DNA of 64,000 nt from Leptospiria bacterium. Its GTDB lineage: Bacteria > Spirochaetota > Leptospiria > Turneriellales > CBDBES01. The notes under the pieces are model-generated. The model ran no database searches. It was not told the DNA's origin and saw only the letters and a program-made list of their open reading frames with translations. Both the position numbers and the translations under genes were made by a program. The stretch is from positions 407,641 through 471,640 of the forward strand of contig CBDHCY010000005.1 in NCBI GenBank assembly GCA_965261485.1, written 5' to 3'. Positions 5,807-59,782 of this stretch are shown piece after piece (the first letter of the stretch is position 1; each line of letters starts with the position of its first letter).

Positions 5807-5813
<7 letters not shown>
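5792..5813 (+). other. 5' arm of the 23S rRNA processing stem
   Basis: tataaaacataatatggtcaag is perfectly complementary (22 bp) to 8786-8807, as expected for an RNase III-type processing helix that brackets the mature ends. Confidence 0.75.
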
Positions 5814-8785
<2,972 letters not shown>

Positions 8786-8792
<7 letters not shown>

Positions 8793-8807
8793 ATATTATG
8801 TTTTATA
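8786..8807 (+). other. 3' arm of the 23S rRNA processing stem
   Basis: cttgaccatattatgttttata is the reverse complement of 5792-5813. Confidence 0.75.
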
Positions 8808-17576: not shown

Positions 17577-20500
17577 ATGTTATTGGAAGACTCTTTCCCT
17601 AAAACGATTGCTTCAATATTTTTAAAGTTTTTTTTTATTTACATAATATTTGTAGGAGGTCTTTTTTTAGCCCGGTATTATTTAAATGAAATTGAAATAT
17701 GGCCTTTTTTCTATTCTTGGTATGCAAAAGAGAGTGAAAAAAATACTAAGACATTTTTAAATGAACGACATCATTTAAATCAAAAAAAAAATTCCAAAGA
17801 TGTTCATAAAATTCTTTCTATAAGAAAATATTTAGAAAAAAAACCTAGATTTAATTTTGATATTCCAGAGTCTTCTTTTATTGAAAATTCTCTTGTCGAA
17901 GCATCAATTTACAAAGATAAAAATCTACCTAAAATTGATGAAGAATTTATAAAATCAGCTAAATATGATACCTCTGGAATTAGTGGAGGTCTTGATGGTA
18001 TCGAATTAAGAGTTTTTGGTAATTCTGGTGTTATTATGTCTTATGGTTTTTCTAACTATCTTACCAAAGAAGACTCACGAAATGATATTGTGTCGGCGAA
18101 TGCAATTAATATTAGAGAGGATTTTTTTTTAGAAGCGGGATTAAACTTAAACTTAAAAGGTAAGATTGGAAAAAGAGTTTTAATCGATGTTAACTATGAT
18201 CAAAATGAAAGGCTTCTAAATAATAAAATTCAACTTAAATATTTTGCCTTACATAAAAAAGAATTTGTTCGTGAAGTCACCGTTGGTAATGTCGGCTTTA
18301 ACTTCCCCAATGATGATTCAACGGAATTCAAAGGTTTTGAAAAAAAAGATAAAGAAACACTGGGAATTGAGGCAAAATTTAAAAAAGGGAAGTTAAGTTT
18401 TCACAGTGTTGCTACTTTGATAGGAGGGGAAACAGCAACAGAAATATTTACAGGTAATACTCATAATATAGAAACTATAATTCCTGAGTATACTTATAAA
18501 GCAAGAAAATATTTTCAGTTAGAGCCATTTATTTATTATGATAAAAAAAATATTTCGCCTATAATCACTAAGGCTTCCTATATAAGAAACAATTCAGATA
18601 GCCTTATTACTTTTACTTCAGTACCTTTAAATAAAAGTAATAAAAATTATCCAACTGCTGTTAATATTGATTCTGGTTCATTTGAAGTGTGGCTTGATGA
18701 TCAGGATGGAACAAATAATCGAATCTTAAATGCCCGAACAAAAAAAATTTTAGGTAATAATTTAGGTCACTATCATTTACTTCAAGAGTCTGATGATTAT
18801 CAAATAAATTATAAAAGTGGTAAACTTGAATTTATTAAATTTATTAGGAGTGATTCTCGTATCTATGTTCGTTACACACGGAATAGGAGTGATAAAGATA
18901 CGGCAGATCCGTCTGCTAGAACGGGTGTCAATGGCAAAATTGAAACTTTTATTTACTTTGGCTCTTCAATGAATGAAGATACAAATTTTGACGGCACTCA
19001 AAATATTACTATTATCAATGATGGTAAAGTAAATTATGATATCTATGAAGTAAGAAGCGTTTACAGCCTTGGTGCTTATAATTTACAAAAAAGTCAGCTT
19101 CAGCTCACCATTGTTGATAGAAATAGAAGTATTATTCCTGGTTTAAATGAGCAGTTAGGTGGTTATACCGTCGATTTTCAGCGAGGTCTTTTGAGCTTTT
19201 ATTTACGAGAACCTTTTAAAGCCCTTAAAAATCAAAATCAAGAATTTATATTGAATGATATGGAAGTAAAAGATATTTACTCTGAAATAAAAATTGATTC
19301 TTCAGAAATATCTCGATTGATGATTGAAGCGAGCTTAGTAGAAGAAATTCAAAATTATAAACTTCAGCATCCACAGATTATCCAAAATTCCGTACAAGTT
19401 ACAATTGATGGTATAAAAATTAAACCAACATTATATATCGTAGATTATTTATTGGGTTTTTTATCTTTCAGTGATAAAAGGAACCCTATAATTTCATCGG
19501 GTACAAGAATTGAAGTAACCTATCAATACTCACCTTTTGGACAAAAGACAAATGGCTTTATTTTAGGTTTAAGAAGTGAATATGAGATGAATCGCAATAT
19601 TAAGTTAGGAAATACACTTTTATATAATGCCCAACTAAAAAATAGTCAGGTACCAAAAATTGGTGAAGAGCCTGTAAGTCGCTTTATAATTGAAAATGAC
19701 CTAAAGGTAAACCTTGGGGAGAAAGAATTGACTAAATTTATAAATTATATTCCCGGTATTGATCTTGATCTTTTACCAGTGAGATATAATTTTTATGGGG
19801 AATATACTAAAAGTTTTTATAATCCAAATACAGTAAATATTGCCTTAGTTGATGATATGGAGTCATCTGAAGATAAAATAGAATTATCATTGAGTGACCG
19901 AGATTGGCAATTATCGAGTTTACCTCCTTCCTTAGGGCTTACTGAGTGTGATCGAGCTCCTTTACTTTACCGCTATTATCGTGATTTAAATAATCTTGAA
20001 TTGGGTCCTACTCGATTAAATACACCGATTCAAGCATCTCCTAATTATCGCCAACTTGCTGGCCCTTATAATGTTGCTGAAGGTCATTTAGATTTTAATC
20101 AGTTGAAACAAGCTGAAAGGCAAGTATCTTTGGTGATGGACTTTGATTTTTCTAGTGGTGGTAAGGTTGCAAGTATTGTTACTAGGCGTTTTTCTCCTGA
20201 AAGTAATGGGCAAAACCTTGCTCAGATAGAGTATATTGAATTTTCAGCTAAATTGATCGACCCCATTGCTCTGTCTGAAGGTGTTTCTATTCGTTTTGAT
20301 ATAGGTACTATTAATGAAGACTCCGATGCTGACTCTAAGTTAGATACAGAAGATGTGGGTTCAGATGGAATTAATAATGATTTGAATGGTGATGGTCTCC
20401 CAGATATTGGAACTTCTTTTTCTGGAGGTGAGCAGAATGGAAGAATTGATCAGGTTGTAGGAGGTTTTACGGAAGATAGAGGATACCATTTTAATGCACC

Positions 20501-23500
20501 TCGTATTTGTTCGGGGTTAAATACAAGAGTGGGTTCTGGCCCTGCTGTGTCTGGTAATCACAGAACAGATGGTAACGGAGTTTTGAATACAGAAGATTTA
20601 AATGGAGATGGTCGATTAGAAACGACTGAAAATGTGATCACATTTGATGAGTTAAACCGTAATTATATTAATTTTGACATTGCATCGGGGTTACACTCTT
20701 CTAATATAATTTTATCGGAAAATTGGCACTTAGTTAGAATGTATTTGAATCGAGAAGCTCTTAATGATACTCAAAAACAGCTACTACACCGTGTAAAAAG
20801 TATTCGTTTATATGTTGTTCCTAGTGGAGTGGGTTCAGCGAATGGAAAGGGACGTATTCTTATTGACAATATTAAATTAGGGCGATCTCTTTGGAGGCGT
20901 AAAAAACTACAAGTCAATAATGTTGAATCTGACTTAGAAGATACTAAAATATTGAATATCAGTACCATTGATAATCAAGACTCTAGGTCTGAATATGCAA
21001 ATGCTTCATTTATTGCTCAAGAAAGAAACGAATATGAAAAATTACATGGAATTCAAACAAATTTTGAACGAAGTCGTATGCGTGAGGCAGCTTTGAAGAT
21101 TAACTATAATTTTAATTCGAGTCTTTGCACTACAGGCGTATGTAAACACGCTTATGTTAGAAGAGTCTTTCTGAGATCACTTGATCTTAGTTCTTATAAT
21201 AAAATAAATATTTGGGTAAATTATCGTAAATTAAATACATCTGATGATTATTTCTTTTTTCGTTTTGGTTCTAGTGACAATAATTATGTGGAAGGCACTG
21301 AGAAGATGAATACTTTGGGATGGCATTTATTAAGTTTTGATATTCCTAAACAATCTGAAGGTGAGATTTGCCCAAAAATAAAACAATTTCATGGATGTCC
21401 CAATCTTAAGCGAGTGAATACAATGATTTTGGGAGTTCGTAATGAAAGCAGTACAGGAGGGAGTGAAGGTATAATTTGGGTCAATGATATTTTTGTGTCT
21501 GAATCAAATACTCAAAATGATGATTTTTATATGATAAAAAATGATATAAAAGTTATAAAACCATTTTATAAAACGAAAGGTGGCGTATCAATCTTTGATA
21601 ACTTCAAAGTCTCATATGATAAACGTTATCAAGGCAATAATTTTTTTACATTGAATCAAAATTTTAAGAATATTTCAATGGATGCGAATAACCTTAGTTT
21701 TACCTCTACATTACTCCCTTTTTTAGAGAGTGCTTATACTTTTTCTTATGTTACCTCTGAATCTTTTGACAATAAGCTTCAAGAACAAAAAGATTTTGAC
21801 GGCAAACTAACAAGGGTAACTCACAGCACACAATATGATTTTAAATTTGAGAATAAGTATTATCCCCGTGTTACAGTTAAATATGAATATCAAAATAAAA
21901 GTAGAGATAAGCAAAATCTTTTAAATAATGTTGTAGATACAGAAATCTTAAATCAATCTGTAGAGGAATATACATATGTACCTTATATTTCATTTTATCA
22001 AAAATTTTTAGATTTTGGGGGTCATAAACTTACTTTAGAGGCAAAAACAGGCATTCAATATTTTAAAAAAGAAGAAAATTTAATTTTGAGTGATTCTTTT
22101 GTAATACCAAAATCCACTCAAAATAAAAAATCAAAAGAACAAAAAGATGAAATGGACTCACATTTGATTTATCAATGGGGTGATTTTAGGTTGCAGACAT
22201 CTTATTTTTTTCGTCAAGTGCTTTTGGTAAATCAAAATTTTACAGATAATCAAATATCAAGTTTAATTAATGGTAATTTTTATTTTCCTTTTTATATAAC
22301 AGCTTCTGATTTTCGTTATGTTCAGAGGCTTAGTAAATATAAATTAGATTTAGAATATCGTAATTTTTGGATATTTTCACCCAAGTTAGAGTATTTATTT
22401 AATTATTTAGAAAATTCTTTTAGAGACAATTCAAGTTCAATAATATTTTCAGGCCTTTCTTTTCAAAGATATAAACAACCGAATAGTTATGCTCGAACAA
22501 ACTTTAGTCTCAATTTTGATCTCAAAAAAATATCTAAAAAACTTAGCTTCTTTAAAAAGATTTCAACTAGTTTTTTTCGAGAGGTCTCCGTAAATGAAAA
22601 CTTTGTTCCTTTCAGTGCAAAGACGGGGTTATTTGAAGATAAATATGGTTTATCAAGTCGTTTTCAAACTTTGTTTGTGAGAGTATATGATCTTTTTTCT
22701 TATCCATTTTGGCAACATTTTACCTCTAAAAATCGATCTCACAATAATTTTTCTGAGGGGAGAGCATATATACAAATGTTAAATTTTAGTCCGATTAGCC
22801 CTTCGATAGAATTTGAAGATGTTTTTTCGCAATATAGTCAAATAATTTTTTTGAAGGAACATATGAATATGGTTATAAATTGGAGTATATTTGATGGATT
22901 CCTTATTTTGAATGAAGCTCATTTAAGTCAGACAATCTCTCGCAGAGGGAATATTGGTGCTTTACCTCATCAAATTGTAAATTTGGGTGTAAGTGTTCGT
23001 CCAACAATTGATCTTATGAAAATTTTAAACTTTTGGTTTTGGTCTAAACCGTTAATAAACAAAAAAAATAATGGAGAATATTATCAAGAAAAAAGCTCTA
23101 ATTTAGATATTAACTTTCGTTATGAAAATCATTTGAAAGTAACCAGTAATATATCTCGCAAGCACTATATACCCGAGTTCAATCTTTCTTTCAATTGGCT
23201 GAATGAAAGAAGTGCTCTTCAATCATTACGTTTTCAGACAAATTTAGATTTTTCAAATGAGAATGAGAGTGATTTTTTTATTACAAATGGAAATCAAAAT
23301 GATATTTCAATATTTGAAAACATACAAAAAAGTGGTAACCGCTTTAAAAAAGAAAATATTAGTTTTGGTTTATCTATTTTATATGTTTTTGGTATTCCTT
23401 TATTGAGGGAGTGGCTGCAAGAACTAACTGGAATAAAATTAAAAAAAAATCCAAAATATAGAATTGAGTTTATATTTAATCTTAATCGCTTTAATTATGA

Positions 23501-23699
23501 TATTTATACTAATTTAAAAGAGTTCCCTTCTGATTTTTATATTCTTGCACAAAATTTAAGTATGAATATCCATACTAATATTATTGGAAAAATGCATTTT
23601 AAATCAGCACTTGAAATTCAGAGAGATCAAGAAACTAATCAAGAGCGTCAAAAAATTCTTGCTTTTGAAATTGGGCTTTCGATTCAAATTATTTTTTAA
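17577..23699 (+). CDS. Giant (2,040 aa) predicted outer-membrane protein, SprA-like
   Basis: Uninterrupted 6.1-kb ORF with an N-terminal hydrophobic anchor or signal. N-terminal motifs (KGKIGKRVLIDVNYDQN...REVTVGNVGFNFP, LGIEAKFKKGKLSF) resemble my recollection of SprA/Sov. It has Asp-rich Ca-binding-like inserts and a C-terminal beta-signal-like end (FEIGLSIQIIF). Confidence 0.55.
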   Translation: MLLEDSFPKTIASIFLKFFFIYIIFVGGLFLARYYLNEIEIWPFFYSWYAKESEKNTKTFLNERHHLNQKKNSKDVHKILSIRKYLEKKPRFNFDIPESSFIENSLVEASIYKDKNLPKIDEEFIKSAKYDTSGISGGLDGIELRVFGNSGVIMSYGFSNYLTKEDSRNDIVSANAINIREDFFLEAGLNLNLKGKIGKRVLIDVNYDQNERLLNNKIQLKYFALHKKEFVREVTVGNVGFNFPNDDSTEFKGFEKKDKETLGIEAKFKKGKLSFHSVATLIGGETATEIFTGNTHNIETIIPEYTYKARKYFQLEPFIYYDKKNISPIITKASYIRNNSDSLITFTSVPLNKSNKNYPTAVNIDSGSFEVWLDDQDGTNNRILNARTKKILGNNLGHYHLLQESDDYQINYKSGKLEFIKFIRSDSRIYVRYTRNRSDKDTADPSARTGVNGKIETFIYFGSSMNEDTNFDGTQNITIINDGKVNYDIYEVRSVYSLGAYNLQKSQLQLTIVDRNRSIIPGLNEQLGGYTVDFQRGLLSFYLREPFKALKNQNQEFILNDMEVKDIYSEIKIDSSEISRLMIEASLVEEIQNYKLQHPQIIQNSVQVTIDGIKIKPTLYIVDYLLGFLSFSDKRNPIISSGTRIEVTYQYSPFGQKTNGFILGLRSEYEMNRNIKLGNTLLYNAQLKNSQVPKIGEEPVSRFIIENDLKVNLGEKELTKFINYIPGIDLDLLPVRYNFYGEYTKSFYNPNTVNIALVDDMESSEDKIELSLSDRDWQLSSLPPSLGLTECDRAPLLYRYYRDLNNLELGPTRLNTPIQASPNYRQLAGPYNVAEGHLDFNQLKQAERQVSLVMDFDFSSGGKVASIVTRRFSPESNGQNLAQIEYIEFSAKLIDPIALSEGVSIRFDIGTINEDSDADSKLDTEDVGSDGINNDLNGDGLPDIGTSFSGGEQNGRIDQVVGGFTEDRGYHFNAPRICSGLNTRVGSGPAVSGNHRTDGNGVLNTEDLNGDGRLETTENVITFDELNRNYINFDIASGLHSSNIILSENWHLVRMYLNREALNDTQKQLLHRVKSIRLYVVPSGVGSANGKGRILIDNIKLGRSLWRRKKLQVNNVESDLEDTKILNISTIDNQDSRSEYANASFIAQERNEYEKLHGIQTNFERSRMREAALKINYNFNSSLCTTGVCKHAYVRRVFLRSLDLSSYNKINIWVNYRKLNTSDDYFFFRFGSSDNNYVEGTEKMNTLGWHLLSFDIPKQSEGEICPKIKQFHGCPNLKRVNTMILGVRNESSTGGSEGIIWVNDIFVSESNTQNDDFYMIKNDIKVIKPFYKTKGGVSIFDNFKVSYDKRYQGNNFFTLNQNFKNISMDANNLSFTSTLLPFLESAYTFSYVTSESFDNKLQEQKDFDGKLTRVTHSTQYDFKFENKYYPRVTVKYEYQNKSRDKQNLLNNVVDTEILNQSVEEYTYVPYISFYQKFLDFGGHKLTLEAKTGIQYFKKEENLILSDSFVIPKSTQNKKSKEQKDEMDSHLIYQWGDFRLQTSYFFRQVLLVNQNFTDNQISSLINGNFYFPFYITASDFRYVQRLSKYKLDLEYRNFWIFSPKLEYLFNYLENSFRDNSSSIIFSGLSFQRYKQPNSYARTNFSLNFDLKKISKKLSFFKKISTSFFREVSVNENFVPFSAKTGLFEDKYGLSSRFQTLFVRVYDLFSYPFWQHFTSKNRSHNNFSEGRAYIQMLNFSPISPSIEFEDVFSQYSQIIFLKEHMNMVINWSIFDGFLILNEAHLSQTISRRGNIGALPHQIVNLGVSVRPTIDLMKILNFWFWSKPLINKKNNGEYYQEKSSNLDINFRYENHLKVTSNISRKHYIPEFNLSFNWLNERSALQSLRFQTNLDFSNENESDFFITNGNQNDISIFENIQKSGNRFKKENISFGLSILYVFGIPLLREWLQELTGIKLKKNPKYRIEFIFNLNRFNYDIYTNLKEFPSDFYILAQNLSMNIHTNIIGKMHFKSALEIQRDQETNQERQKILAFEIGLSIQIIF

Positions 23700-30018: not shown

Positions 30019-31194
30019 TTATGTTAAATAGTTGGCGTTAATTTTAACGTATTCTTCAGTTAGGTCACAGCCATAGACTCGCCAAGAGGCATTTCCAATA
30101 TTTAAATTAACTTCTAAAAATATTTCTTCATTTTTTTTTAAATAATGAGAAAGTGTTTGGTTTATATTTGAGTCATTTTTTTGCTTTTTCTCGCCCCAAG
30201 ATAATTGAATTTTATCGGGTATAATGTGTGCCTGAGAAGTTTTTCCAATCGCCATATAAATTCGTCCCCAATTTGGATTGCTTTTAGATATGGCTGTCTT
30301 AACTAAAGGAGAATTAATAATATTTTTGCCTACGCTTCGAGCATCATTTTCATTAACTGCACCTTTAACATCCACAATAAAAAGCTTACTAGCTCCCTCT
30401 CCATCACGGGCAAGCCATCGAGTCATTTGAATTGACATTTCTTCAAATGTTTTTGAGAATTTATTTTCATCTACTTCATGAGCTAATCCATTGGCCATAA
30501 TAAATAAAGTATCTGAAGTTGACATATCTGAGTCAATAGATAAACTATTAAATGTTTTGTCTATGATGGGTTGTGTGATTGTACGAAGACAGTCTGAGGA
30601 AATTTTAGCATCTGTGAAAAAATAAGATAACGTTGTTGCCATATTTGGCTCAATCATTCCTGAGCCCTTTGTTACTCCAACAATCTTTACTTTACCTATT
30701 TGTGATGATATATATTTAGGGAAGGTATCTGTTGTCATGATTGCTTTAGAAAAATTTTCAAAATTTGGTGGAGTTGTTAGCTGGGTCGATAAAGAGTTTA
30801 ATGCTGAGCATATTTTATCAACGGGTAAATTAATACCGATAGCACCAGTTGAAGATGGAAAAATAGAATGAAGAGGTATTTTCATTTGGCTAGCTACTTT
30901 TTGGCATACATTTATACAATTTTCATAACCTTGTTTTCCTGTAGAAACATTTGAGTTTTTTGAATTGACTACAAGTGCTCTAAAATTATTTTTTTGATAG
31001 TGTTTTTGTGCTACTTTAATTGGTTCACCTTTAATTTTATTTTTTGTAAAAAAAGCGGCTGATGTACAAACTTTTTCTGAAACAACGACACCCAAATCAA
31101 GAGATTTATCTTTTATACCACAATTAGTCACAAAAGTATGAAAGCCTTTAGGTAAATATTTTAAAGCTTTTGGTTTTTTAGAAAATGTTACCAC
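30019..31194 (-). CDS. argJ: Bifunctional glutamate N-acetyltransferase / amino-acid acetyltransferase
   Basis: 391 aa. N-terminus LPKGFHTFVTNCGIK, autoprocessing region PNMATTLSYFFTDA, and the typical C-terminal YVKINANYLT ending. The GTG start overlaps the DUF58 stop by 7 nt. Confidence 0.9.
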   Translation of the reverse strand: MVTFSKKPKALKYLPKGFHTFVTNCGIKDKSLDLGVVVSEKVCTSAAFFTKNKIKGEPIKVAQKHYQKNNFRALVVNSKNSNVSTGKQGYENCINVCQKVASQMKIPLHSIFPSSTGAIGINLPVDKICSALNSLSTQLTTPPNFENFSKAIMTTDTFPKYISSQIGKVKIVGVTKGSGMIEPNMATTLSYFFTDAKISSDCLRTITQPIIDKTFNSLSIDSDMSTSDTLFIMANGLAHEVDENKFSKTFEEMSIQMTRWLARDGEGASKLFIVDVKGAVNENDARSVGKNIINSPLVKTAISKSNPNWGRIYMAIGKTSQAHIIPDKIQLSWGEKKQKNDSNINQTLSHYLKKNEEIFLEVNLNIGNASWRVYGCDLTEEYVKINANYLT

Positions 31195-32465
31195 TTTAGT
31201 TCAAAATAATTAGTGATAATTTTTTGATATAAATTTTCAGGGTGATCATTTATGTATAATAAATGATTATGTTTAAAAAAAAGATCTTCACTTTTTTTCT
31301 CTTTTAGAAGGTGAATTCTCGCCCAAAGATAAGCAAGGTCATGAGAATTTTCATAATAATATTTGAAAAGTCGGATGGGATTTACCCAAATTATTTGATA
31401 ATTTTTACTTAAAAGATAAATTACCTCCCTTTGAGCATAAATTTGCTCAAAATTTAAAAATGGAGATAACAAAATTAAAATACTTTTTTTTTGTAATTTA
31501 TTCTTTACAAAATTATAAAGCTCCATTAGGTTCATATGCTCATAACTTTCTTCAACACGTTGTAGCCTTTTAAAAATAGAAGATAAGTTTCTTTTAGAAA
31601 GGTCTGGTGGAATATATAAATCAATTTTATCTGAAAATGTGAGTAGACCAGTCTCATCTTGATTTTTTATAAAAGTAGAAGCTAATTGAAAAGCAAGTGC
31701 TGTCTGATAATCAGTATATTGATATTTTTTATAATCAAAGCGACTTGAAATACCTGTATTTAATATAATTAGAGTTTTACGATTTTGCTCTTTTTGATAT
31801 TCGTTCACATAAATTTCATTGAAACTCCCGGCAGTTTTTTGCCAATTAATATTTTTAAGAGAATCACCAAATTGATATAAACGGATTCCATAAAAATCAC
31901 TTTCTCCAGATATATGATATCGTTGATTTATTCTTCCTACTTTTTTTTTCTCTTGATTAACTAAATGAAGAATGGGTGGTGCTATAAAAATTTTATGTTT
32001 GTGAATAAGTTTACGATATCGGGTAAATATACCCAACCTTGTTTGATATCCTATATAAAATTCAATATCATGATAAGTACCTTTGCTTTTACCTTTAAAT
32101 TTGAAAAAAGTATCAGATTTGTATAATGTATATATACGGGGAGAAAATTCGGCAGGCAAAAAAATTTTCAAAAAGAATTCTGAATTAAATTGATTCCAAT
32201 CAATAGTAATTTCTTGAAAACGGTTAAGTTCCATAAAATTAGGCCAATTGATATCAAAAGAAATTTTGTTAAATTCTTTTTCTAAGCAAATATTGCTATG
32301 GCGTAGGTCATAAATGAGTACATATATGAGTAATATAATATAAGGGATAAAAATTTTTGGAATAAGAATAGGTATTAAACTTGAAAGCCAAAGTAGACTT
32401 AAAATTTTTCGATCTCCAGGAAAAAAATATTTTTTAGATGTAATTTGCTTTGCTGAATAATGCAT
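31188..32465 (-). CDS. DUF58 domain-containing membrane protein
   Basis: 425 aa with two N-terminal transmembrane helices and the DUF58 core motif IRLYQFGDSLKNINWQKTA. It lies directly downstream of the MoxR ATPase, the usual pairing. Confidence 0.8.
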   Translation of the reverse strand: MHYSAKQITSKKYFFPGDRKILSLLWLSSLIPILIPKIFIPYIILLIYVLIYDLRHSNICLEKEFNKISFDINWPNFMELNRFQEITIDWNQFNSEFFLKIFLPAEFSPRIYTLYKSDTFFKFKGKSKGTYHDIEFYIGYQTRLGIFTRYRKLIHKHKIFIAPPILHLVNQEKKKVGRINQRYHISGESDFYGIRLYQFGDSLKNINWQKTAGSFNEIYVNEYQKEQNRKTLIILNTGISSRFDYKKYQYTDYQTALAFQLASTFIKNQDETGLLTFSDKIDLYIPPDLSKRNLSSIFKRLQRVEESYEHMNLMELYNFVKNKLQKKSILILLSPFLNFEQIYAQREVIYLLSKNYQIIWVNPIRLFKYYYENSHDLAYLWARIHLLKEKKSEDLFFKHNHLLYINDHPENLYQKIITNYFELKW

Positions 32466-32537
32466 ATTAGTTATTTTATGAAAGAGGCTGTGCTTACCTC
32501 ATGTTTGGGTTAAATCTCCTTATAAAAAAAATATATT

Positions 32538-33479
32538 TTATCGAGGAACTTCCTCAGAGGCTAATATTTTATCTAATACAGAACCAGCATCTATATTTTC
32601 CATTTGAGCTTCTGTGGAAAGTATTATACGATGTTGAAGAACATATTTGTAAAGTATTTGGATATCATCAGGAATAACAAAATCACGATCTTCTTTGAAA
32701 CCCCATACACGTGCTAATTGAAGTAAATGTACAGACGCTCTTGGACTCGCCCCATATTCAATATATTTATTTTGACGTGTTTTACGAATTAAGCGTAAAA
32801 GATAGTCTATAATATTTTCACTCACTGTGACCTTGAATGCTTCTTCTTTTAATTTAGAAATTTCTTGAGTACTTGTAATTTGTTTTATTTGAGAAAAATC
32901 TATATTTTTACTGTCTTTACCTTGAATAGCATTTGATAAAATTTTCTCTTCTTCACTAAATTTAGGGAAATTAACTCGAATCATGATCATAAATCGGTCT
33001 AATTGAGCTTCAGGTAGGGGATAGGTACCAGCCAACTCAATTGGATTTTGAGTTGCTAGAACAAAGAATAGATCACCTAGAGAATAGCTTTTTCGTTCCA
33101 CTGTGACTTGATATTCTTCCATTGCCTCAAGAAGTGCTGCCTGAGTTTTAGGAGGTGTACGATTTATTTCATCAGCAAGAATAATATTTGAAAAGATGGG
33201 ACCTTTTCGAAAAGAGAAACTTGTATTATTTTTATTATAGTAAATATGCCCTAAAATATCAGAAGGTAGGAGATCAGGAGTAAACTGAATACGCTCAAAA
33301 TTAAGACCAAGTAATTTAGCCAAAACTTTAACACTAAAAGTCTTTCCAGTTCCGGGTAGACCTTCAAGAATAACATGACCACTAGCAAGGAAGCTTGCTA
33401 AAAGGAGCTCTAATGTTTCATCGTAACCTATAATATATTCGGAAAATTTATTTTGAATATTTTTAAACCACGAATTCAT
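32538..33479 (-). CDS. MoxR-family AAA+ ATPase
   Basis: 313 aa. Walker A is GLPGTGKT and Walker B is ILADEINRTPPKTQAALLEAMEE. Typical MoxR length and C-terminal lid. Confidence 0.9.
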   Translation of the reverse strand: MNSWFKNIQNKFSEYIIGYDETLELLLASFLASGHVILEGLPGTGKTFSVKVLAKLLGLNFERIQFTPDLLPSDILGHIYYNKNNTSFSFRKGPIFSNIILADEINRTPPKTQAALLEAMEEYQVTVERKSYSLGDLFFVLATQNPIELAGTYPLPEAQLDRFMIMIRVNFPKFSEEEKILSNAIQGKDSKNIDFSQIKQITSTQEISKLKEEAFKVTVSENIIDYLLRLIRKTRQNKYIEYGASPRASVHLLQLARVWGFKEDRDFVIPDDIQILYKYVLQHRIILSTEAQMENIDAGSVLDKILASEEVPR

Positions 33480-33598
33480 GATGCAAGGCTTCTTAAAGGA
33501 AACATTCTGTCTATCAATATAGAAACTAATAATGACAAAATATAAAGTTTAGCTAGATTATTCCATAGTGATGATTGAATAATAAATTCAAAATATAT

Positions 33599-36121
33599 TT
33601 AGATGTTTTCACTTGTACTAAAAATTTCCGCACTTTGGATGATTGTACTGGCATGTGCAGCTTCAAAATCGACTCTTTTCATCTTATTTATGTTTGAAGT
33701 AACAGTAGTATTTAAAGCATAGATTTTAAAATAGTAGTTATGCACACCAGTGCCACTTGGAGGGCAGGGGCCTCCCCAACCAGTATCTGGTCTTTCTCCA
33801 CGACCTGACCAACTGTTCTGACCAACTGTCCAGTTCATGGGAAAACTTGGTTCTTCAGACGTTGTCGTGAGTGTCGATGCCGGAGTTGGAACAGTCAATT
33901 TAGCCAATTCAGTGGGTAAATTGACCGTTCCTATTTTATTATACCAAGCATTTAAATGTACCCAAGGACTACTACTGTGGGTGTCTTCAACAATCAAAAC
34001 AAGTGCTTTGGCATTTGCAGGGATATTTGACCAAGTGAGTTTAGGGAAATCATTATTACCACTGCATTGAGAAGCCGGCATTCCTATACCGTTGACGCGA
34101 GGTAGCCTCTCTTTAAAATTATCAGGAATCATCCCTCCTGGTGTGAAACCATCATCACTGAGACTTGAAGTTAATGAGAATGATATCATAGGATTACCGC
34201 TATTACTATTTTCACTTGTACTAAAAATTTCCGCACTTTGGATGATTGTACTGGCATGTGCAGCTTCAAAATCGACTCTTTTCATCTTATTTATGTTTGA
34301 AGTAACAGTAGTATTTAAAGCATAGATTTTAAAATAGTAGTTATGCACACCAGTGCCACTTGGAGGGCAGGGGCCTCCCCAACCAGTATCTGGTCTTTCT
34401 CCACGACCTGACCAACTGTTCTGACCAACTGTCCAGTTCATGGGAAAACTTGGTTCTTCAGACGTTGTCGTGAGTGTCGATGCCGGAGTTGGAACAGTCA
34501 ATTTAGCCAATTCAGTGGGTAAATTGACCGTTCCTATTTTATTATACCAAGCATTTAAATGTACCCAAGGACTACTACTGTGGGTGTCTTCAACAATCAA
34601 AACAAGTGCTTTGGCATTTGCAGGGATATTTGACCAAGTGAGTTTAGGGAAATCATTATTACCACTGCATTGAGAAGCCGGCATTCCTATACCGTTGACG
34701 CGAGGTAGCCTCTCTTTAAAATTATCAGGAATCATCCCTCCTGGTGTGAAACCATCATCACTGAGACTTGAAGTTAATGAGAATGATATCATAGGATTAC
34801 CGCTATTACTATTCTCACTTGTACCAAAAATTTCTGCATTTTGGATGATTTTACTGGCATGTGCAGCTTCAAAATCGACTCTTTTCATCTTATTTATGTT
34901 TGAAGTAACAGTAGTATTTAAAGCGTAGATTTTAAAATAGTAGTTATGCACACCAGTGCCACTTGGAGGGCAGGGGCCTCCCCAACCAGTATCTGGTCTT
35001 TCTCCACGACCTGACCAACTGTTCTGACCAACTGTCCAGTTCATGGGAAAACTCGGTTCTTCGGACGTTGTCGTGAGTGTCGATGCCGGAGTTGGAACAG
35101 TCAATTTAGCCAATTCAGTGGGTAAATTGACCGTTCCTATTTTATTATACCAAGCATTTAAATGTACCCAAGGACTACTACTGTGGGTGTCTTCAACAAT
35201 CAAAACAAGTGCTTCGGCATTTGCAGGGATATTTGACCAAGTGAGTTTAGGGAAATCATTATTACCACTGCATTGAGAAGCCGGCATTCCTATACCGTTG
35301 ACGCGAGGTAGCCTCTCTTTAAAATTATCAGGAATCATCCCTCCTGGTGTGAAACCATCATCACTGAGACTTGAAGTTAATGAGAATGATATCATAGGAT
35401 TACCGCTATTACTATTCCCACTTTTATTCTCATTAGTAACGGTGCCAAAAATTGTTGCACTGGCTATGATTTGAGACTCATTACTAGACTCAAAGACTGA
35501 CCCTAGTGTGTTGTTTATAGGAGTAGTAATTTTTGCATTCATGGCATATATTTTGAAATAGTAGCGATAGGTAGTCTCATTCGGTGGGCATGGCCCACCC
35601 CAACCATCGTTGGGTCTATCTCCAGTACCTGACCAACTATTATCACCAACTGTCCAACCATTAGAAAAGGTCGGTTCGACGGCTGTTATATTAAATGTGT
35701 TGGGTCCAGATAATTTATCTATCCCATTAGGTAATTGTTCATTCATTGTTCGGTTGTAGTAAGCATTTAGGTGCACCCATTGAGGTTGAGCATCTATATT
35801 CTCCACGATTAAAACAAGGGCTTGAGTCTCTTCAGGAATATTTGACCAAGTGAGTTTAGGAAAGTTATTACCGCCAGAGCACTGGGCACCTGTATCACGA
35901 GGCAATTTTTCTTTAAAATTATTGGGGATTACATCTCCTGGATTAAAGCCATCATCACTGCTACTGGAAGTTATAAAAAATCTTGTTGAACCACCATTTT
36001 TTTTTGAAATTGTTTCTTGACCATTTAAGCGATCACTCATATTTTGCTCAAAAGGACAACGCATTGTTAGAAAGAAGATACAAAATATAAAGTACAAGAA
36101 TTTATAAAATACATTGAGCAT
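33599..36121 (-). CDS. Secreted/lipoprotein with four tandem PEBP (YbhB/YbcL-like) domains
   Basis: 840 aa with an N-terminal signal containing Cys (FFLTMRC). The motif C(S)G.N.FPKLTWSNIP...ALVLIVE......WVHLNA.YN ... GWGGPCPP.....YYFKIYA.N occurs four times and corresponds to the YbhB/YbcL PEBP pattern. Confidence 0.75.
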   Translation of the reverse strand: MLNVFYKFLYFIFCIFFLTMRCPFEQNMSDRLNGQETISKKNGGSTRFFITSSSSDDGFNPGDVIPNNFKEKLPRDTGAQCSGGNNFPKLTWSNIPEETQALVLIVENIDAQPQWVHLNAYYNRTMNEQLPNGIDKLSGPNTFNITAVEPTFSNGWTVGDNSWSGTGDRPNDGWGGPCPPNETTYRYYFKIYAMNAKITTPINNTLGSVFESSNESQIIASATIFGTVTNENKSGNSNSGNPMISFSLTSSLSDDGFTPGGMIPDNFKERLPRVNGIGMPASQCSGNNDFPKLTWSNIPANAEALVLIVEDTHSSSPWVHLNAWYNKIGTVNLPTELAKLTVPTPASTLTTTSEEPSFPMNWTVGQNSWSGRGERPDTGWGGPCPPSGTGVHNYYFKIYALNTTVTSNINKMKRVDFEAAHASKIIQNAEIFGTSENSNSGNPMISFSLTSSLSDDGFTPGGMIPDNFKERLPRVNGIGMPASQCSGNNDFPKLTWSNIPANAKALVLIVEDTHSSSPWVHLNAWYNKIGTVNLPTELAKLTVPTPASTLTTTSEEPSFPMNWTVGQNSWSGRGERPDTGWGGPCPPSGTGVHNYYFKIYALNTTVTSNINKMKRVDFEAAHASTIIQSAEIFSTSENSNSGNPMISFSLTSSLSDDGFTPGGMIPDNFKERLPRVNGIGMPASQCSGNNDFPKLTWSNIPANAKALVLIVEDTHSSSPWVHLNAWYNKIGTVNLPTELAKLTVPTPASTLTTTSEEPSFPMNWTVGQNSWSGRGERPDTGWGGPCPPSGTGVHNYYFKIYALNTTVTSNINKMKRVDFEAAHASTIIQSAEIFSTSENI
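33605..35425. repeat. 603-bp in-frame tandem repeat, three copies
   Basis: The units at about 33608-34210 and 34211-34813 are identical as far as I can read. The unit at 34814-35416 differs at about ten positions. Antisense ORFs in the track recur at exactly 603-bp spacing (33837/34440/35043 and 34092/34695). Confidence 0.95.
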
Positions 36122-36250: not shown

Positions 36251-37372
36251 ATGAGTGTAATGAAGTCAACACATCTCTATCAAGAACATCAAAAGTTAAA
36301 TGCAAAAATGATTTCTTTCGCTGGTTTTAAAATGCCCATTTCTTATAGTGGAGTAAAAGAGGAATATTGGGCAACTCGAAAAAAAACAGGTTTGTTTGAT
36401 ATCTCGCATATGTCTCCTATTTTAGTCAAATCAAAAATTAATGGTGAAATTATTCGGTATCTTAACCACATTACTTGTCGCGATTTAAAAAATCTTAAAC
36501 CATCTCAGGTTCAATATAACGCATTAGTAAATAATAAAGGAGGCATTGTTGATGATATCACGATTTATATGCTAAACTCTTCATTATTTATGTTAATTGT
36601 TAACGCCTCTAACAAAGAGAGTGTGATTGAGCATCTGCAAAAATATCAGGATAAATTTAGTTATTCATGTAAGATTTATCCTCTTGAAGAATATATTCTA
36701 TTAGCTCTTCAAGGGCCTTTATCTGAATCTATTATGACAACAATTAAAACGATTACTTATCAGCTCAATCAACTTTATTATTATGAATGTACTCTTCTAA
36801 ATTCTAAAGTAAAAAATGTGCCATATGTAATTTCAAGAACAGGTTATACGGGTGAAGATGGCTTTGAAGTGTTGCTCCCTAAAAAATCGGGTTTGCTCCT
36901 TTGGAAAGAAATGATCAGCTTAGGAGCTCAACCATGTGGCTTGGCGAGTCGAGATTTACTTCGTATGGAAGTATTTTATCCTTTATATGGTAAGGAACTT
37001 ACAATAGATAAAACACCAGCAGAGAGTGGTATTGGCTGGTTGGTGAGTTCCAATAAAACATTTATAGGTAAAGATAGAATTTTATTAGAGAAAAATAAGC
37101 CAACAAAAAAAACAAAAGGGTTTCAATTATTAGAGGAGGGTATTCCGAGAACTGGCTATGAAATTTTTACAAGTGATAAGAAAAAAGTAGGTATTGTAAC
37201 TAGTGGCAGCTATTCATTTCAATGGAAAAAAGGATTTGGTATAGCCTATTTAGACGCAACTTATGCGAATGATCAGCAAGAACTTTTTTTAAAAATTCGA
37301 GATCAAAATAAAAGAATAAGAGTTCTTTCTAAAAGCCCCCATAAGGGCAGTATTCAAAAAAGACCATGTTAA
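36251..37372 (+). CDS. gcvT: Glycine cleavage system aminomethyltransferase (T protein)
   Basis: 373 aa. Motifs: TPLY..H..L.AKM..FAG..MP..Y-like N-terminus, GLFDISHM, ISRTGYTGEDGFEV, GLASRDLLRME. Confidence 0.9.
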   Translation: MSVMKSTHLYQEHQKLNAKMISFAGFKMPISYSGVKEEYWATRKKTGLFDISHMSPILVKSKINGEIIRYLNHITCRDLKNLKPSQVQYNALVNNKGGIVDDITIYMLNSSLFMLIVNASNKESVIEHLQKYQDKFSYSCKIYPLEEYILLALQGPLSESIMTTIKTITYQLNQLYYYECTLLNSKVKNVPYVISRTGYTGEDGFEVLLPKKSGLLLWKEMISLGAQPCGLASRDLLRMEVFYPLYGKELTIDKTPAESGIGWLVSSNKTFIGKDRILLEKNKPTKKTKGFQLLEEGIPRTGYEIFTSDKKKVGIVTSGSYSFQWKKGFGIAYLDATYANDQQELFLKIRDQNKRIRVLSKSPHKGSIQKRPC

Positions 37373-53378: not shown

Positions 53379-55070
53379 TTACTGTAAAATAATTTTAAAT
53401 TCTGAAAAAACAGAGTTTTTTCTTTGAAAACTGTGAATAAGTAAAGTTTTTACTCTTCTAATATAACTTAAATATTGAGGGAAAAGAGCTCCCAAGCCAC
53501 TTTTATTGATAATATCATAAAGCTGATTTACATCAACCAAGATTAAACCTGAGCTTTCTTGAGTATTCGCGGAGAGAATATTATTATGTTTTTTAATAAC
53601 ATTTTTTCCGCTATTATTTAGTACTTTATCTATATTTTCTCTTTTGGATAAAATACTTAGTTGAGCATTATGAAAAAGTAAAAAAAATGTCTTTGAAATT
53701 ATTTGTCCTTTTATTCGCTCATTCCAGTGAAATTTCCATAGGTCGTGTTTATTTTTATAAGTCTCTTTGATAAATTGAAATTTATAATTAGTTAACATCT
53801 TTTGTAAAAGATATTCAAGTCTTTTTTTAGTTTTCTTTGATAATATTTGTTTAAGTCCTATATTTGCGATAAAATGAGTGTCTTGTAAATGTAAAGGGAG
53901 TCTTTGGGCTAAAGGTTTGATAATGATGATACTTATATTACCTCTAAGATAAAATTGGAGCATCTTTTTGAGAGGTTGTGCTATCTTGTTTTTTGGAAAT
54001 ATTTTATAAAGATTAATAAATGGAATTTTATTTTGATAGTGCCAAATATATTTAGGGTTAAAAAGACCTGTAAAGTGAAGTATCTTTTTATCTGTATTTT
54101 TATCAAGCTTGAGGCTACCTATTTTTACAGAATAATCTCCTTGCTTTTTTTTAAAAAAGTCTAATTCAAAATCAAATATTTGTTTGTCTCCCTGTTCAAG
54201 AAATGTTGTTTCAAATAGATGCTGTATCGATAAATTAAATTGATTTGAAGTTACAGCAACTTCTCCGCTGATGAGCTTTGTATTTGCAAGAAGAAGCTTA
54301 GTTTTTGGAGTATATGATTTAAAAAAAGGAAACCAGCGTATTTTTTTAATATAGTTAAATAATCCAGAATTAGCAAAAAAACTAGCCAAGTGCCCTTTTC
54401 TTTTTACAGAAGACTCTTTTTTAAAAAGTTGGTATATTGTTGATTTATATAAATTATTTTTTTGAATTTGAGTACTTTTGAGTGCCATTTTTTTATTATT
54501 GCCAAGTATAATATGATGCGTACCTTTTACAAGATAGAAAAGGTGTCTTCCAATAGAGAGCTCCAATAATTTATTTTTTTGTAATTCTCTCACTTTGTCT
54601 AGAATTTTGATATTACTTTGTGTTCTATTATATAAATATTTTTTCAAATATTTATATAATTTATTTGAATTTAACGCAGGAATTAGTAATTGAATGGTAC
54701 CTTGTATTTTTATGGGTGATTTATATAAAATAAGGCAAAATTTGAGATGATTATCAATACCCATTTTTTGAATTTTTTTATTTTCAAACAGGCTTAGGCC
54801 AGTTTTAGAATTGATCCACCGCACCAAAGAGTTCCATTCAATGGTCTTATTTCTGCTTCCTCGTCTTAAGGAAAAATAAAATAATTTTAATTGTTTTGTG
54901 AAGCTTTTCAAATTTTTACCTTCTAAAAATAAAAATATATTTTTGTCTTTTGGGGTGATATTTTCTATATATTTTGCTGGTTCAAAGGTAGGTGCAGAAG
55001 CAATAATTTTAGCACTACATAAGATAAAAATTATAGTATTTAAAAAAAACTTGTAACAAAAAGAGAACAT
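53379..55070 (-). CDS. Hypothetical secreted protein
   Basis: 563-aa Lys-rich ORF with an N-terminal signal (IIFILCSAKIIASA). No motif recognised. Confidence 0.45.
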   Translation of the reverse strand: MFSFCYKFFLNTIIFILCSAKIIASAPTFEPAKYIENITPKDKNIFLFLEGKNLKSFTKQLKLFYFSLRRGSRNKTIEWNSLVRWINSKTGLSLFENKKIQKMGIDNHLKFCLILYKSPIKIQGTIQLLIPALNSNKLYKYLKKYLYNRTQSNIKILDKVRELQKNKLLELSIGRHLFYLVKGTHHIILGNNKKMALKSTQIQKNNLYKSTIYQLFKKESSVKRKGHLASFFANSGLFNYIKKIRWFPFFKSYTPKTKLLLANTKLISGEVAVTSNQFNLSIQHLFETTFLEQGDKQIFDFELDFFKKKQGDYSVKIGSLKLDKNTDKKILHFTGLFNPKYIWHYQNKIPFINLYKIFPKNKIAQPLKKMLQFYLRGNISIIIIKPLAQRLPLHLQDTHFIANIGLKQILSKKTKKRLEYLLQKMLTNYKFQFIKETYKNKHDLWKFHWNERIKGQIISKTFFLLFHNAQLSILSKRENIDKVLNNSGKNVIKKHNNILSANTQESSGLILVDVNQLYDIINKSGLGALFPQYLSYIRRVKTLLIHSFQRKNSVFSEFKIILQ

Positions 55071-57534: not shown

Positions 57535-57875
57535 TAATTAATTCATCATTTTTTACTTTTTATCTTAATGGGGTCATTTGATGCTATATTTGCTATCAAA
57601 TTAAATTAATCAAAGGAAATCAAGGCTAATGAGACTTAATCCAGCTTAATTTAGTCTTATCGATTGACCGAGGTTTGATTCGGGGTATGGTCTCTTAAAA
57701 ATAAGAGGTTGTATTCGTGCCAGAGGGCATTTATTGTTTGAAATCAAATAAAACACACCTGTTTTGATGTTTGTGGTGTCATTCTTCCGTGGGGGGTAGC
57801 TTTGTTGATCTTTAGAATCAAGAAGGCTATCCTCTACGGAAATATTTGCCTGAAAATTTAAGTAGGAGAAAAAAA

Positions 57876-58712
57876 ATGATTATAAACCACAACATGAGTT
57901 CAATTAATACTCACAGAGTGTTGAAGTTTAGAGGTTGGGATGTAAATAAATCTATAGCAAAGCTTGCTTCTGGCGAAAGAATCACTAAATCGAGCGATGA
58001 CGCTTCAGGTTTAGCTGTTTCAGAAAAAATGAGAGCCCAAATCAGAGGTCTGCGTCAGGCAGAAAGAAACACTGAGAATGGGTTGAGTTTTATCCAGACA
58101 GCAGATGGTTTTTTGGATCAAGTAGCTAACGTTTTGCAGCGTGTTCGTGTTCTTGCGGTGCAGTCTGCGAATGGTATTTACAGTGATGAAGACCGTCAAT
58201 TGATGCAAGTTGAAGTTTCACAGCTAGTGGATGAGCTTGATCGGGTAGCATCTCAGGCAGAATTTAATCACTTCAAGATGTTTCTTGGTGATTATGCACG
58301 AGGTTCTAGAGTTAGTTCTATGTGGTTTCACATGGGGCCAAACAAAGATCAACGTGAGCGAGCCTATATTGGCACGATAACAGCACTTGCTTTGAAAATT
58401 AATCAAGCAAGTGTGAAAACTGCTTCTGAGTCAAATAATTCAATCGGAATAGTTGACAATGCATTGAATCAGCTTTTAAAGCAAAGAGCCGATTTGGGTG
58501 CTTACGCCAATAGATTGGAGATATCAGCCAAGGGTTTGATGAGTGCCTATGAAAATATACAGGCAGCTGAAAGTCAAATCAGAGATGCAGATATGGCAGA
58601 AGAGATGATTGAGTTTACGAGAAATCAGATACTTGAGACAGCTGCTATGTCTATGTTAGCACAGGCCAACCTCAGAGGACAGAGTGTGTTTCGGTTGTTG
58701 AATGGCATTTAA
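57876..58712 (+). CDS. flaB: Flagellar filament core protein FlaB (flagellin)
   Basis: N-terminus [14 protein letters not shown], then [32 protein letters not shown]-terminus [23 protein letters not shown]. An AGGAG sits 8 nt upstream of ATG 57876. Confidence 0.95.
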
Positions 58713-58933: not shown

Positions 58934-59782
58934 ATGAAAATTAACAATAACCTTAGTGCGATGTTTGCACATCGACAACTTAAAATTGGTTCTACGAAAA
59001 TGGAGAAGTCAATTGAAAGGCTGTCGACTGGGATGCGAATTAACAAAGCCGGGGATGATGCTACTAATCTTGCTGTATCTGAAAAGATGCGTGCGCAGAT
59101 TAATGGTTTAAAGCAAGCCGAACAAAATGCATTGAACGGATTATCTTTCATTCAGGTAGCTGAAAGTGGGATGACCCAAGTAAATAACATGTTACAAAGA
59201 GTAAGACAACTTTCTGTACAAGCGGCGAATGGGATATACTCTGACACAGATCGATTACAGATTCAAGTGGAAGTTTCTCAGCTCATCGATGAGATTGATC
59301 GAATTTCTACAACAGTCGAGTTTAATCGAAGAAAAGTTCTTACGGGAGACTATGCTAGAGGTTCAGATAGAGCTTCAATGTTCTTTCATGTAGGTCCAAA
59401 TCAAAATCAGAGAATTAAAGCCTATATTGCTACCATGAGTGCTCGTGCCCTAGGCTTATATGAGGCAAATGAAAAAAAGAAGGTTAGCACCGTAGGGGAT
59501 GCCAATGATATGATCGGCACTATTGATGTAGGTTTAGACCGTCTAAACCGAGAGAGAGCCGATTTAGGGGCATACTATAATCGTATTGAGTCTACAACTC
59601 AGGCTCTCGGCAGTGCCTACGAAAATATGGTTTCTGCGGAAAGTCGAGTTCGCGACGCGGATATGGCCGAGGAGTTAATTGAATTTACCAAGAATCAGGT
59701 TGTCTTACGGAGTGGTACAGCGATGCTAGCTCAGGCAAATGCTTTGTCGAGAATAGTGTTTAAACTTATAGACAACCTATAA
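58934..59782 (+). CDS. flaB: Flagellar filament core protein FlaB (flagellin), second paralogue
   Basis: N-terminus MKINNNLSAMFAHRQL. It shares the conserved N- and C-terminal flagellin blocks with the first copy. An AAGGAGAG RBS is present. Confidence 0.95.
   Translation: MKINNNLSAMFAHRQLKIGSTKMEKSIERLSTGMRINKAGDDATNLAVSEKMRAQINGLKQAEQNALNGLSFIQVAESGMTQVNNMLQRVRQLSVQAANGIYSDTDRLQIQVEVSQLIDEIDRISTTVEFNRRKVLTGDYARGSDRASMFFHVGPNQNQRIKAYIATMSARALGLYEANEKKKVSTVGDANDMIGTIDVGLDRLNRERADLGAYYNRIESTTQALGSAYENMVSAESRVRDADMAEELIEFTKNQVVLRSGTAMLAQANALSRIVFKLIDNL

Follow-up and report, generated by a model that had tools for sequence, protein, structure and literature searches.

We analysed a stretch of 64,000 nucleotides (nt) from a Leptospiria bacterium of the order Turneriellales (contig CBDHCY010000005.1, positions 407,641 to 471,640; hereafter the window), in which an open reading frame (ORF) at 33599–36121 on the minus strand encodes an 840-amino-acid (aa) protein made of four PEBP domains. 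The domain assignment is far beyond chance. The Pfam model PF01161 (PBP) matches the ORF in four stretches with E = 2e-81 (271.5 bits against a cut-off of 24), and the NCBIfam model TIGR00481 (YbhB/YbcL) likewise in four, with E = 1.1e-63 (213.3 bits, cut-off 57.75). An earlier note on this DNA, made from the sequence alone, had described a four-domain PEBP/YbhB-like protein on the basis of repeated motifs; both the architecture and the motifs that it quoted are borne out, and its coordinates for the ORF are exact. The E. coli equivalog models NF007330 and NF007609 (YbcL and YbhB) score far under their cut-offs (130.3 versus 277 bits and 82.7 versus 226 bits), and the units are therefore PEBP domains as opposed to orthologues of either protein. 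The elements of the gene are listed below, with domain envelopes taken from a family profile built in this analysis.

33599–36121, minus strand: multi-PEBP repeat protein, whole ORF, 840 aa (PBP and TIGR00481 matches)
36056–36121, minus strand: N-terminal hydrophobic segment MLNVFYKFLYFIFCIFFLTMRC (aa 1–22), a putative signal peptide or anchor with an atypical lipobox (hydropathy)
35441–35989, minus strand: PEBP unit 1 (aa 45–227), diverged, with N, D, H, Y and R at the five signature sites (profile envelope)
34820–35398, minus strand: PEBP unit 2 (aa 242–434), with D, H, H, H and N at those sites (profile envelope)
34217–34795, minus strand: PEBP unit 3 (aa 443–635), the unit modelled (profile envelope, AlphaFold2)
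33614–34192, minus strand: PEBP unit 4 (aa 644–836) (profile envelope)
33606–35414, unstranded: three head-to-tail 603-bp DNA repeats (33606–34208, 34209–34811 and 34812–35414; repeat search, spacing 603/603, 97–100% identity)

The public gene models for this protein (P0001 and P0002) begin 19 codons later, at Met20 (nt 36064, MRCPFEQ), and give 821 aa, over which P0001 is 100% identical to the ORF. An AlphaFold2 model of unit 3, made with an alignment of 15 units, has a mean predicted local distance difference test score (pLDDT) of 84.8 and a predicted template modelling score (pTM) of 0.86. When it was compared with the PDB using Foldseek, all of the best matches were PEBPs, with E values down to 6e-12: CT736 (3n08), YbcL (1fux), YbhB (1fjj), Rv2140c and HP0218. 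The target-normalised template modelling (TM) scores of the first three are 0.78–0.81.

At the DNA level the protein consists of an old PEBP module and, after it, three copies of very recent origin, a conclusion that follows from the near-identity of units 2–4 and the far greater divergence of unit 1. Each 603-bp repeat comprises one PEBP unit together with a Ser/Asn-rich linker. Units 2–4 are 98.3–99.8% identical, their pairwise differences amounting to 1, 9 and 10 nt (units 3 and 4 differ at 1/597 nt, units 2 and 3 at 9/603 nt), whereas unit 1 is 70–76% identical to the other units, with a synonymous divergence (dS) from unit 2 of about 1.5. The near-identity of the repeats in units 2–4 had not been pointed out in the earlier note.

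A second strain, L005 (an ENA contig), has the same neighbourhood (gcvT, clpP, ispH/lytB, a TPR gene and moxR). With nucleotide identities of 96.3–99.2% in the neighbouring genes and 99% protein identity for MoxR, it is a strain of the same species as the window. Its PEBP gene has three units versus the four in the window, and its two repeated units, which hardly differ from one another, are only about 90% identical to the repeats of the window. Because the repeats are closer within a strain than between strains, the comparison of the two sequences indicates either concerted evolution or independent re-amplification, along with copy-number change and fast divergence. Nei–Gojobori estimates for the window versus L005 give a nonsynonymous divergence (dN) of 0.002–0.022 and dN/dS of 0.05–0.21 in five flanking genes; the corresponding values are 0.026 and 0.57 for unit 1, and 0.075–0.096 and 0.5–0.87 for the repeated units, in which dS is raised too (0.10–0.16). 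More than half of the between-strain changes (17/31, including a 3-residue indel) lie within the 38 positions at aa 91–128 of the unit, a subfamily-specific insertion between two conserved motif blocks (aa 42–90 and aa 129–166) that show one change each. The idea that the changes concentrate in low-confidence loops of the model was dropped, as they show no correlation with model confidence (Spearman −0.08, p = 0.74).

Five polar residues are near-invariant across the PEBP superfamily (Asp71, Asp73, His87, His118 and Arg119 in FT numbering), and multiple replacements at these sites were seen only in mitoribosomal L35/L38 and plant PYBHB (PMC8793217). We aligned the units to YbcL, YbhB and CT736 and tabulated the five sites, the assignment of Asp73 being alignment-dependent because the Asp71–His87 loop is 2–3 residues shorter in the units than in YbcL:

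Unit 1: N at Asp71, D at Asp73, H at His87, Y at His118, R at Arg119
Units 2–4: D at Asp71, H at Asp73, H at His87, H at His118, N at Arg119
Most units of relatives: D at Asp71, T at Asp73, H at His87, H at His118, T at Arg119

The full five-residue signature is present in none of the four units, each of which keeps three of the five residues. The subsets kept are complementary: unit 1 retains the Asp73/Arg119 salt-bridge pair, while units 2–4 retain the cavity rim formed by Asp71, His87 and His118. The alignment and the table thus support the non-canonical pocket that had been read from the sequence, and the change of HW to HL is confirmed against YbcL and YbhB. The loss of DPDAP was overstated. 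Although the loop is otherwise altered, its first Asp is kept in units 2–4 (VE-D-THSSSP) and its second in unit 1 (VEN-I-D-AQP).

These altered motifs had been presented as a peculiarity of this protein, but they define a wider subfamily which includes single-domain lipoproteins. C46 and C146 are invariant in 15/15 aligned units and align with the Cys pair of periplasmic YbcL, whereas YbhB has no Cys at these positions; on this basis we infer a C46–C146 disulfide. The other marks of the subfamily are W-V-H-L in place of W-H-W, the shortened DPDAP loop, an insertion of about 20–25 residues, and loss of the Asp73–Arg119 'shoulder' salt bridge. The combination of W-V-H-L, His-Thr/Asn and the Cys pair dominates among the best 34 50%-identity representatives drawn from a library of 1.84 billion proteins, and it also occurs in many single-domain proteins such as P0058; more distant matches carry the canonical D.D...HW...HR pattern. 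Judged by these sequence marks, the units are members of a distinct bacterial PEBP subfamily, most of which have lipoprotein-type N-termini.

The four-PEBP architecture had been called unusual, and prokaryotic YbhB homologues are indeed mostly stand-alone and rarely fused (PMC8793217). A search of the literature on Leptospira PEBP lipoproteins and on tandem bacterial PEBP domains found nothing relevant. To judge from the homologues recovered, however, the tandem architecture is not unique to this gene. A word-based search returned multi-unit homologues at about 50% identity, namely P0003 (6 units), P0004 and P0050 (4 each), and P0005, P0006 and P0007 (3 each), with P0003–P0006 all about 50% identical to the window protein. 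An exhaustive profile search added P0052 (3 units), P0054 (3 fn3 and 3 PBP domains) and a set of giant lipoproteins: P0053 (6,038 aa), P0055 (2,672 aa) and P0056 (3,401 aa), the last of which has a related cluster-mate, P0314, of 6,581 aa. All of the multi-PEBP relatives come from metagenome assemblies and none is characterised. A scan of the genome collection gave only two distant single-domain matches, in a Woesearchaeota metagenome-assembled genome (MAG) and a Desulfobacteraceae MAG, and neither the source genome nor any close relative was among its matches. The gene is therefore best described as part of a small uncharacterised tandem-PEBP family in uncultured spirochaetes, and as a new architecture within a known domain family. 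The homologues at L004:10001-13387 and L006:10001-12736 terminate in about 280 aa rich in Gly, Thr and Ser, where 'GT(I/V)..S.DG..W' motifs recur; this region is beta-propeller-like (a faint match to PF25852, DUF6242_C) and has no counterpart in the window protein.

The giant lipoproteins contain 12–23 recognisable but degenerate PEBP-like units (31 matched stretches in P0053). P0053 (23 units) and P0055 (12 units) are encoded by adjacent genes at L008:1-18019 (ENA ERZ26695388, a 2.42-Mb contig) and also carry fn3 and BACON modules. The units of the giant forms lack both the Cys pair and the signature pocket residues, and so are probably structural. The array in the window could be read in the same way, chiefly as a structural element or a variable part of the surface (a spacer or an antigenically variable coat) in which the pockets are functionless, and its fast divergence and variable copy number between strains would suit such a role. 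We consider this unlikely for the window protein: here and in the relatives of 3–6 units, conservation is strong in the pocket-forming blocks and at the Cys pair, and the variation falls in other segments.

The N-terminus bears on where the array is placed. The segment MLNVFYKFLYFIFCIFFLTMRC reaches a maximum 12-residue Kyte–Doolittle hydropathy of 2.59, compared with 1.9–3.3 for the lipoprotein-type N-termini of homologues, and is identical in strain L005. Such N-termini are found in homologues of 3–6 units (LTTSC, LITAC and CIYSC). More broadly, a hydrophobic segment with a spirochaete-style lipobox is present in P0004, P0006, P0003/P0005, P0053–P0056, P0058 and P0009, where the lipoboxes are LTTSC, LITAC, CIYSC, LLLYC, FFQNC, IFINC, TFAHC and LIINC; P0007 has no lipoprotein-type N-terminus in its gene model. 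The signal- or lipobox-like reading of FFLTMRC holds in part, in that the hydrophobic segment is there if translation starts at the ATG at 36121, but the segment lies outside the public gene models and an Arg occupies position −1. No Shine–Dalgarno sequence was seen near this ATG. Export of the protein, as the earlier note had supposed, is likely because homologues carry lipoprotein-type N-termini, because the Cys pair is as in periplasmic YbcL, and because the N-terminus is hydrophobic. The protein is probably anchored in the membrane or, possibly, lipid-modified.

Lipobox usage in this genome appears loose, with lipoprotein-like N-termini also in the ORFs at 53379–55070 (minus strand; IFILC) and 4417–5190 (minus strand; INFNC), the first of which, at 563 aa, has no Pfam match. 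Another lipoprotein-like N-terminus (LFYSC) belongs to an RCC1-repeat protein at 9072–10679 (plus strand), and RCC1 repeats are fused to a PEBP domain in the distant PEBP homologue P0014.

The gene stands out in base composition. Among 36 long ORFs of the window, the PEBP gene included, its overall G+C is 0.401 versus 0.322, so it is clearly G+C-rich, as had been judged by eye. By codon position the values are 0.42 versus 0.43 at the first (GC1), 0.48 versus 0.32 at the second (GC2, the highest of the 36), and 0.30 versus 0.216 ± 0.045 at the third (GC3). Most of the excess is thus at GC2. The amino-acid content of the protein combined with bulk codon usage of the window gives an expected G+C of 0.376, so that about two-thirds of the excess is compositional, in agreement with one of the two explanations that had been offered (a Gly/Pro/Trp-rich composition). 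After amino-acid correction there remains a GC3 excess of +0.077 (z = 2.0), and the non-repeated unit 1 is also GC3-raised (0.288).

The only genes with a higher GC3 are two tandem FlaB-type flagellin genes at 57846–58712 and 58934–59782 on the plus strand, the highest of the window (0.35 versus a mean of 0.216), which we took as the reference for high-expression codon usage. The fraction of C in two-fold NNY codons is 0.30–0.32 in the PEBP gene and 0.27–0.32 in the flagellins, compared with 0.145 ± 0.047 (maximum 0.24) in the bulk, and in flagellin-versus-bulk log-likelihood per codon the PEBP gene ranks above all 33 other genes. The simplest reading of these codon statistics is that the G+C content reflects a Gly/Pro/Ser/Thr/Ala/Trp-rich composition together with the flagellin-like usage of well-expressed genes, although biased gene conversion or incomplete amelioration may account for the residual GC3 excess.

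The second explanation that had been offered was foreign origin. Recent horizontal acquisition from a G+C-richer genome would fit the raised overall G+C, the GC3 value and its corrected excess, and the fact that the known relatives reside in genomes of 44–49% G+C. We regard it as very unlikely, since the excess is mostly at GC2 and hence a matter of amino-acid composition, and the residual codon bias equals that of two native flagellin genes. In the relatives, whose flanking DNA is 44–49% G+C, the PEBP genes are G+C-rich at position 2 only and ordinary in GC3. Moreover, no mobile-element genes flank the gene and no integrase, transposase or tRNA adjoins it, outside the species the closest homologues reach only about 50% identity, and gcvT adjoins the gene as it does in two related genomes. 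In composition, mobility genes and synteny alike, the locus does not resemble a horizontally acquired island.

The immediate neighbours of the gene are as follows.

33480–33598, minus strand: AT-rich spacer of 119 bp from the PEBP stop to the moxR start (spacer scan)
31188–33479, minus strand: moxR (AAA_3) at 32538–33479 and a DUF58/VWA-like gene at 31188–32465, given for context only (Pfam)
36251–37372, plus strand: gcvT, divergent neighbour, 129 bp from the PEBP gene (orthologue comparison)

The co-directional arrangement of the PEBP gene, moxR at a distance of 119 bp and then the DUF58 gene is as the earlier note had it. No terminator-like hairpin was detected in the 119-bp spacer, which makes co-transcription of the PEBP gene with moxR possible; promoter and terminator scans gave only consensus-level matches which recur in each unit and are uninformative. 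The DUF58 gene and argJ (ArgJ family, 30019–31194) overlap by 7 nt at 31188–31194, so that moxR, DUF58, argJ and possibly the PEBP gene may form one transcription unit, an odd functional mix.

This arrangement invites the idea that the PEBP protein is a substrate or cofactor, and co-transcribed partner, of the MoxR AAA+ ATPase and the DUF58/VWA-like protein. The shared direction and the short gap without a hairpin would suit it, and the only other PEBP–MoxR adjacency, in L005, has the same arrangement, although L005 is of the same species and is not independent evidence. We consider such a partnership highly improbable. Five multi-PEBP loci of other genomes (L003, L004, L006, L007 and L008) have neither MoxR nor DUF58 within 10 kb (0/5), the outcome that the earlier note had itself named as refuting such a link, and MoxR resides in the cytoplasm, while the PEBP family looks to be exported. 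From the loci compared, the position upstream of MoxR–DUF58 is specific to this lineage and does not mark a conserved partner.

On the other side, the multi-PEBP genes of L004 and L006 lie directly upstream of a gcvT orthologue (60–61% identity) and are co-directional with it, whereas the pair is divergent in the window; this difference implies that the PEBP gene alone was inverted in place or that independent insertions occurred next to gcvT. At the two closest gcvT loci, L010 and L011 (67% and 64% identity), there is no PEBP adjacency, and an unrelated 217-aa gene occupies the position. The small genes upstream of gcvT in L010 and L011 were considered as cryptic PEBPs and ruled out on checking. 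On this comparison of loci, the gcvT adjacency is patchy synteny from which we draw no functional conclusion. At L011:10016-14348, by the gcvT orthologue, an IS3-type transposase pair (rve, HTH_Tnp_1) either interrupts a Type ISP restriction-modification gene or comes after it.

Elsewhere in the window, the PNPase shares 62% identity with its best named matches, from Leptospiraceae and Turneriella MAGs, and 51% with the Leptospira and Leptonema proteins; other relatives reach 78–80%. A complete 23S rRNA gene lies at 5807–8794 (plus strand) and has neither a 16S nor a 5S rRNA gene next to it; in Leptospira, too, rRNA genes are known to be unlinked. With these PNPase matches, the isolated 23S rRNA gene, the FlaB-type flagellins and the loose lipoboxes, the source is taken to be an AT-rich, uncultured lineage of Leptospirales, and the earlier note's placement in that order is reasonable. 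An ORF of 2,040 aa at 17577–23699 (plus strand) has no Pfam match at E ≤ 1e-5 and contains a hydrophobic segment near residue 20.

Taken together, the sequence and model comparisons lead us to favour, with some reserve, the reading that the gene encodes an extracytoplasmic repeat protein, probably anchored or lipid-modified, which acts as a multivalent binder of an anionic ligand and varies in its number of modules. A hydrophobic N-terminal segment, probably for export, is followed by one older PEBP module and then by three almost identical modules, the products of recent tandem duplication or of gene conversion of the 603-bp unit. Outside the cytoplasm the modules would form a beads-on-a-string array. 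In units 2–4, where D71, H87 and H118 are retained, a polar cavity with an Asp-His-His rim would bind phosphoryl, sulfate or carboxylate groups on a polymeric or membrane ligand, with avidity set by module number, and both the module number and the insertion segment would change quickly between strains through unequal recombination. Anion binding is inferred here by analogy with the known PEBP cavity (PMC8793217). Extracellular PEBP domains are often fused to GH88, BACON, Calx-beta, CHB_HEX_C (chitobiase-C) and fn3 modules, and fusions to carbohydrate modules are described in actinobacteria (PMC8793217); these fusions point weakly to anionic glycans as ligands.

Several points weigh against this proposal. 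Two of the five near-invariant PEBP residues are lost in each unit, which may have changed or abolished the canonical chemistry of the pocket. The degenerate units of the giant lipoproteins suggest that PEBP arrays can play a purely structural role. Cys22 comes after the hydrophobic core and the Arg which precedes it is not a canonical lipobox residue, while the start codon is itself uncertain, the hydrophobic segment requiring an ATG that public models omit. The copy number of four depends on a single assembly spanning three near-identical repeats, and dN/dS values of 0.5–0.9 fit relaxed constraint as well as diversifying selection.

The same cavity could instead be catalytic. Under Mushegian's hypothesis each unit would catalyse a reaction of a small metabolite that contains a sugar or nucleoside, making the array a multi-active-site exoenzyme. 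According to the review, the conserved Asp/His/His/Asp/Arg set is reminiscent of an active centre, and it points to fusions with carbohydrate-metabolism modules (PMC8793217); units 2–4 keep the Asp and both His residues, and PEBP–GH88 fusions are among the homologues that we recovered. Against this, every unit has substitutions at two of the five signature sites, Asp71 and His118 are both missing from unit 1, and no PEBP is known to have a demonstrated enzymatic activity, which leaves catalysis quite unlikely in our view. Inhibition offers another role: the protein would then be a multi-headed inhibitor of proteases, comparable to yeast Tfs1p in its complex with carboxypeptidase Y and to mammalian PEBP, which inhibits serine proteases. 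The carboxypeptidase Y inhibitor complex (1wpx) is indeed among the distant structural matches, but the match is weak (TM 0.40); and while the paralogue P0003 is encoded about 0.9 kb upstream of a Peptidase_C1 gene, adjacency to a protease is not a conserved feature of the loci. For the inhibitory segment at the N-terminus of Tfs1p, the window protein presumably has no counterpart, and we regard an inhibitor as exceedingly improbable.

Multivalent anion binding thus remains the reading that we prefer, and a wider, more doubtful extension of it can be sketched. Tandem PEBP arrays might constitute an undescribed class of spirochaetal cell-envelope proteins, with 3 to >20 units and 0.6–6.6 thousand residues, whose short forms would be multivalent receptors for an anionic polymer or lipid head group by way of a working Asp-His-His cavity. 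Unit number and the inserted loop would diversify rapidly by concerted evolution, much like adhesins exposed to pressure from hosts or phages, and the subfamily would form a third PEBP lineage (after mL38 and PYBHB) without the Asp73–Arg119 pair. The finding alone reveals no new system or mechanism. Its interest lies in the domain, which is ancient and ubiquitous (RKIP, florigen FT, YbhB/YbcL) and disputed in its biochemical function: 3–6 pocket-bearing units on one exported protein would be a natural case of multivalency, and unit 1 and units 2–4 are natural 'mutants' of the five signature residues; both could help to decide between a binding site and an active centre. The window and L005, for their part, would illustrate how the repeats of an envelope protein evolve in concert and vary in copy number, in an uncultured group of Leptospirales.

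Among known proteins, a close likeness is to YbcL (1fux), which shares the PEBP fold (target-normalised TM 0.78–0.79), gives the strongest sequence match of any solved structure (family profile, E = 4e-14), and has in common with the units the Cys pair (C.G.N ... G.CPP), the G.N.(S/F)P.L.W motif, the GG.CPP loop and H.Y.F.(V/I)(W/Y)AL. YbcL is periplasmic, and the window protein looks extracytoplasmic. The two differ in that YbcL consists of one 166-aa domain whose DPDAP, WWHW and His-His motifs are canonical, whereas the window units are about 200 aa long, with the insertion of about 20–25 residues, a shortened and altered DPDAP loop and H-L, and occur four per chain. Units 2–4 also have no Arg119-type residue. 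YbhB (1fjj, 1vi3) and CT736 (3n08) also share the PEBP fold (TM about 0.8), and CT736 has 'LVLIVEDPD' and 'PPCPP..HRYYFY.YAL' motifs in common with the units; both are single-domain proteins, however, and YbhB is cytoplasmic and lacks the Cys pair. An analogy of organisation, without any sequence relationship, is with the leptospiral Lig-type proteins, lipoproteins of tandem and recently homogenised domain repeats outside the cytoplasm, whose repeats are Big_2 immunoglobulin-like domains and not PEBPs. Among uncharacterised relatives, P0058 (228 aa) is a single-domain WVHL lipoprotein with the N-terminus LTFAHC, which matches the units in FTLTSS..DGF, QC.G.NNFPKLTWSN, (E/A)DSTNPWVHLNLYN and GPCPP..HTY.FKLYAL and differs in having one unit versus four; no such protein is characterised. 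Also close are the multi-PEBP MAG proteins (P0003–P0006 and P0050; P0053, P0055 and P0056), which share the tandem PEBP units and mostly spirochaete-style lipoprotein-type N-termini, and differ in unit number and, in some cases, by a C-terminal beta-propeller-like region (PF25852, faint) or by fn3 and BACON modules.

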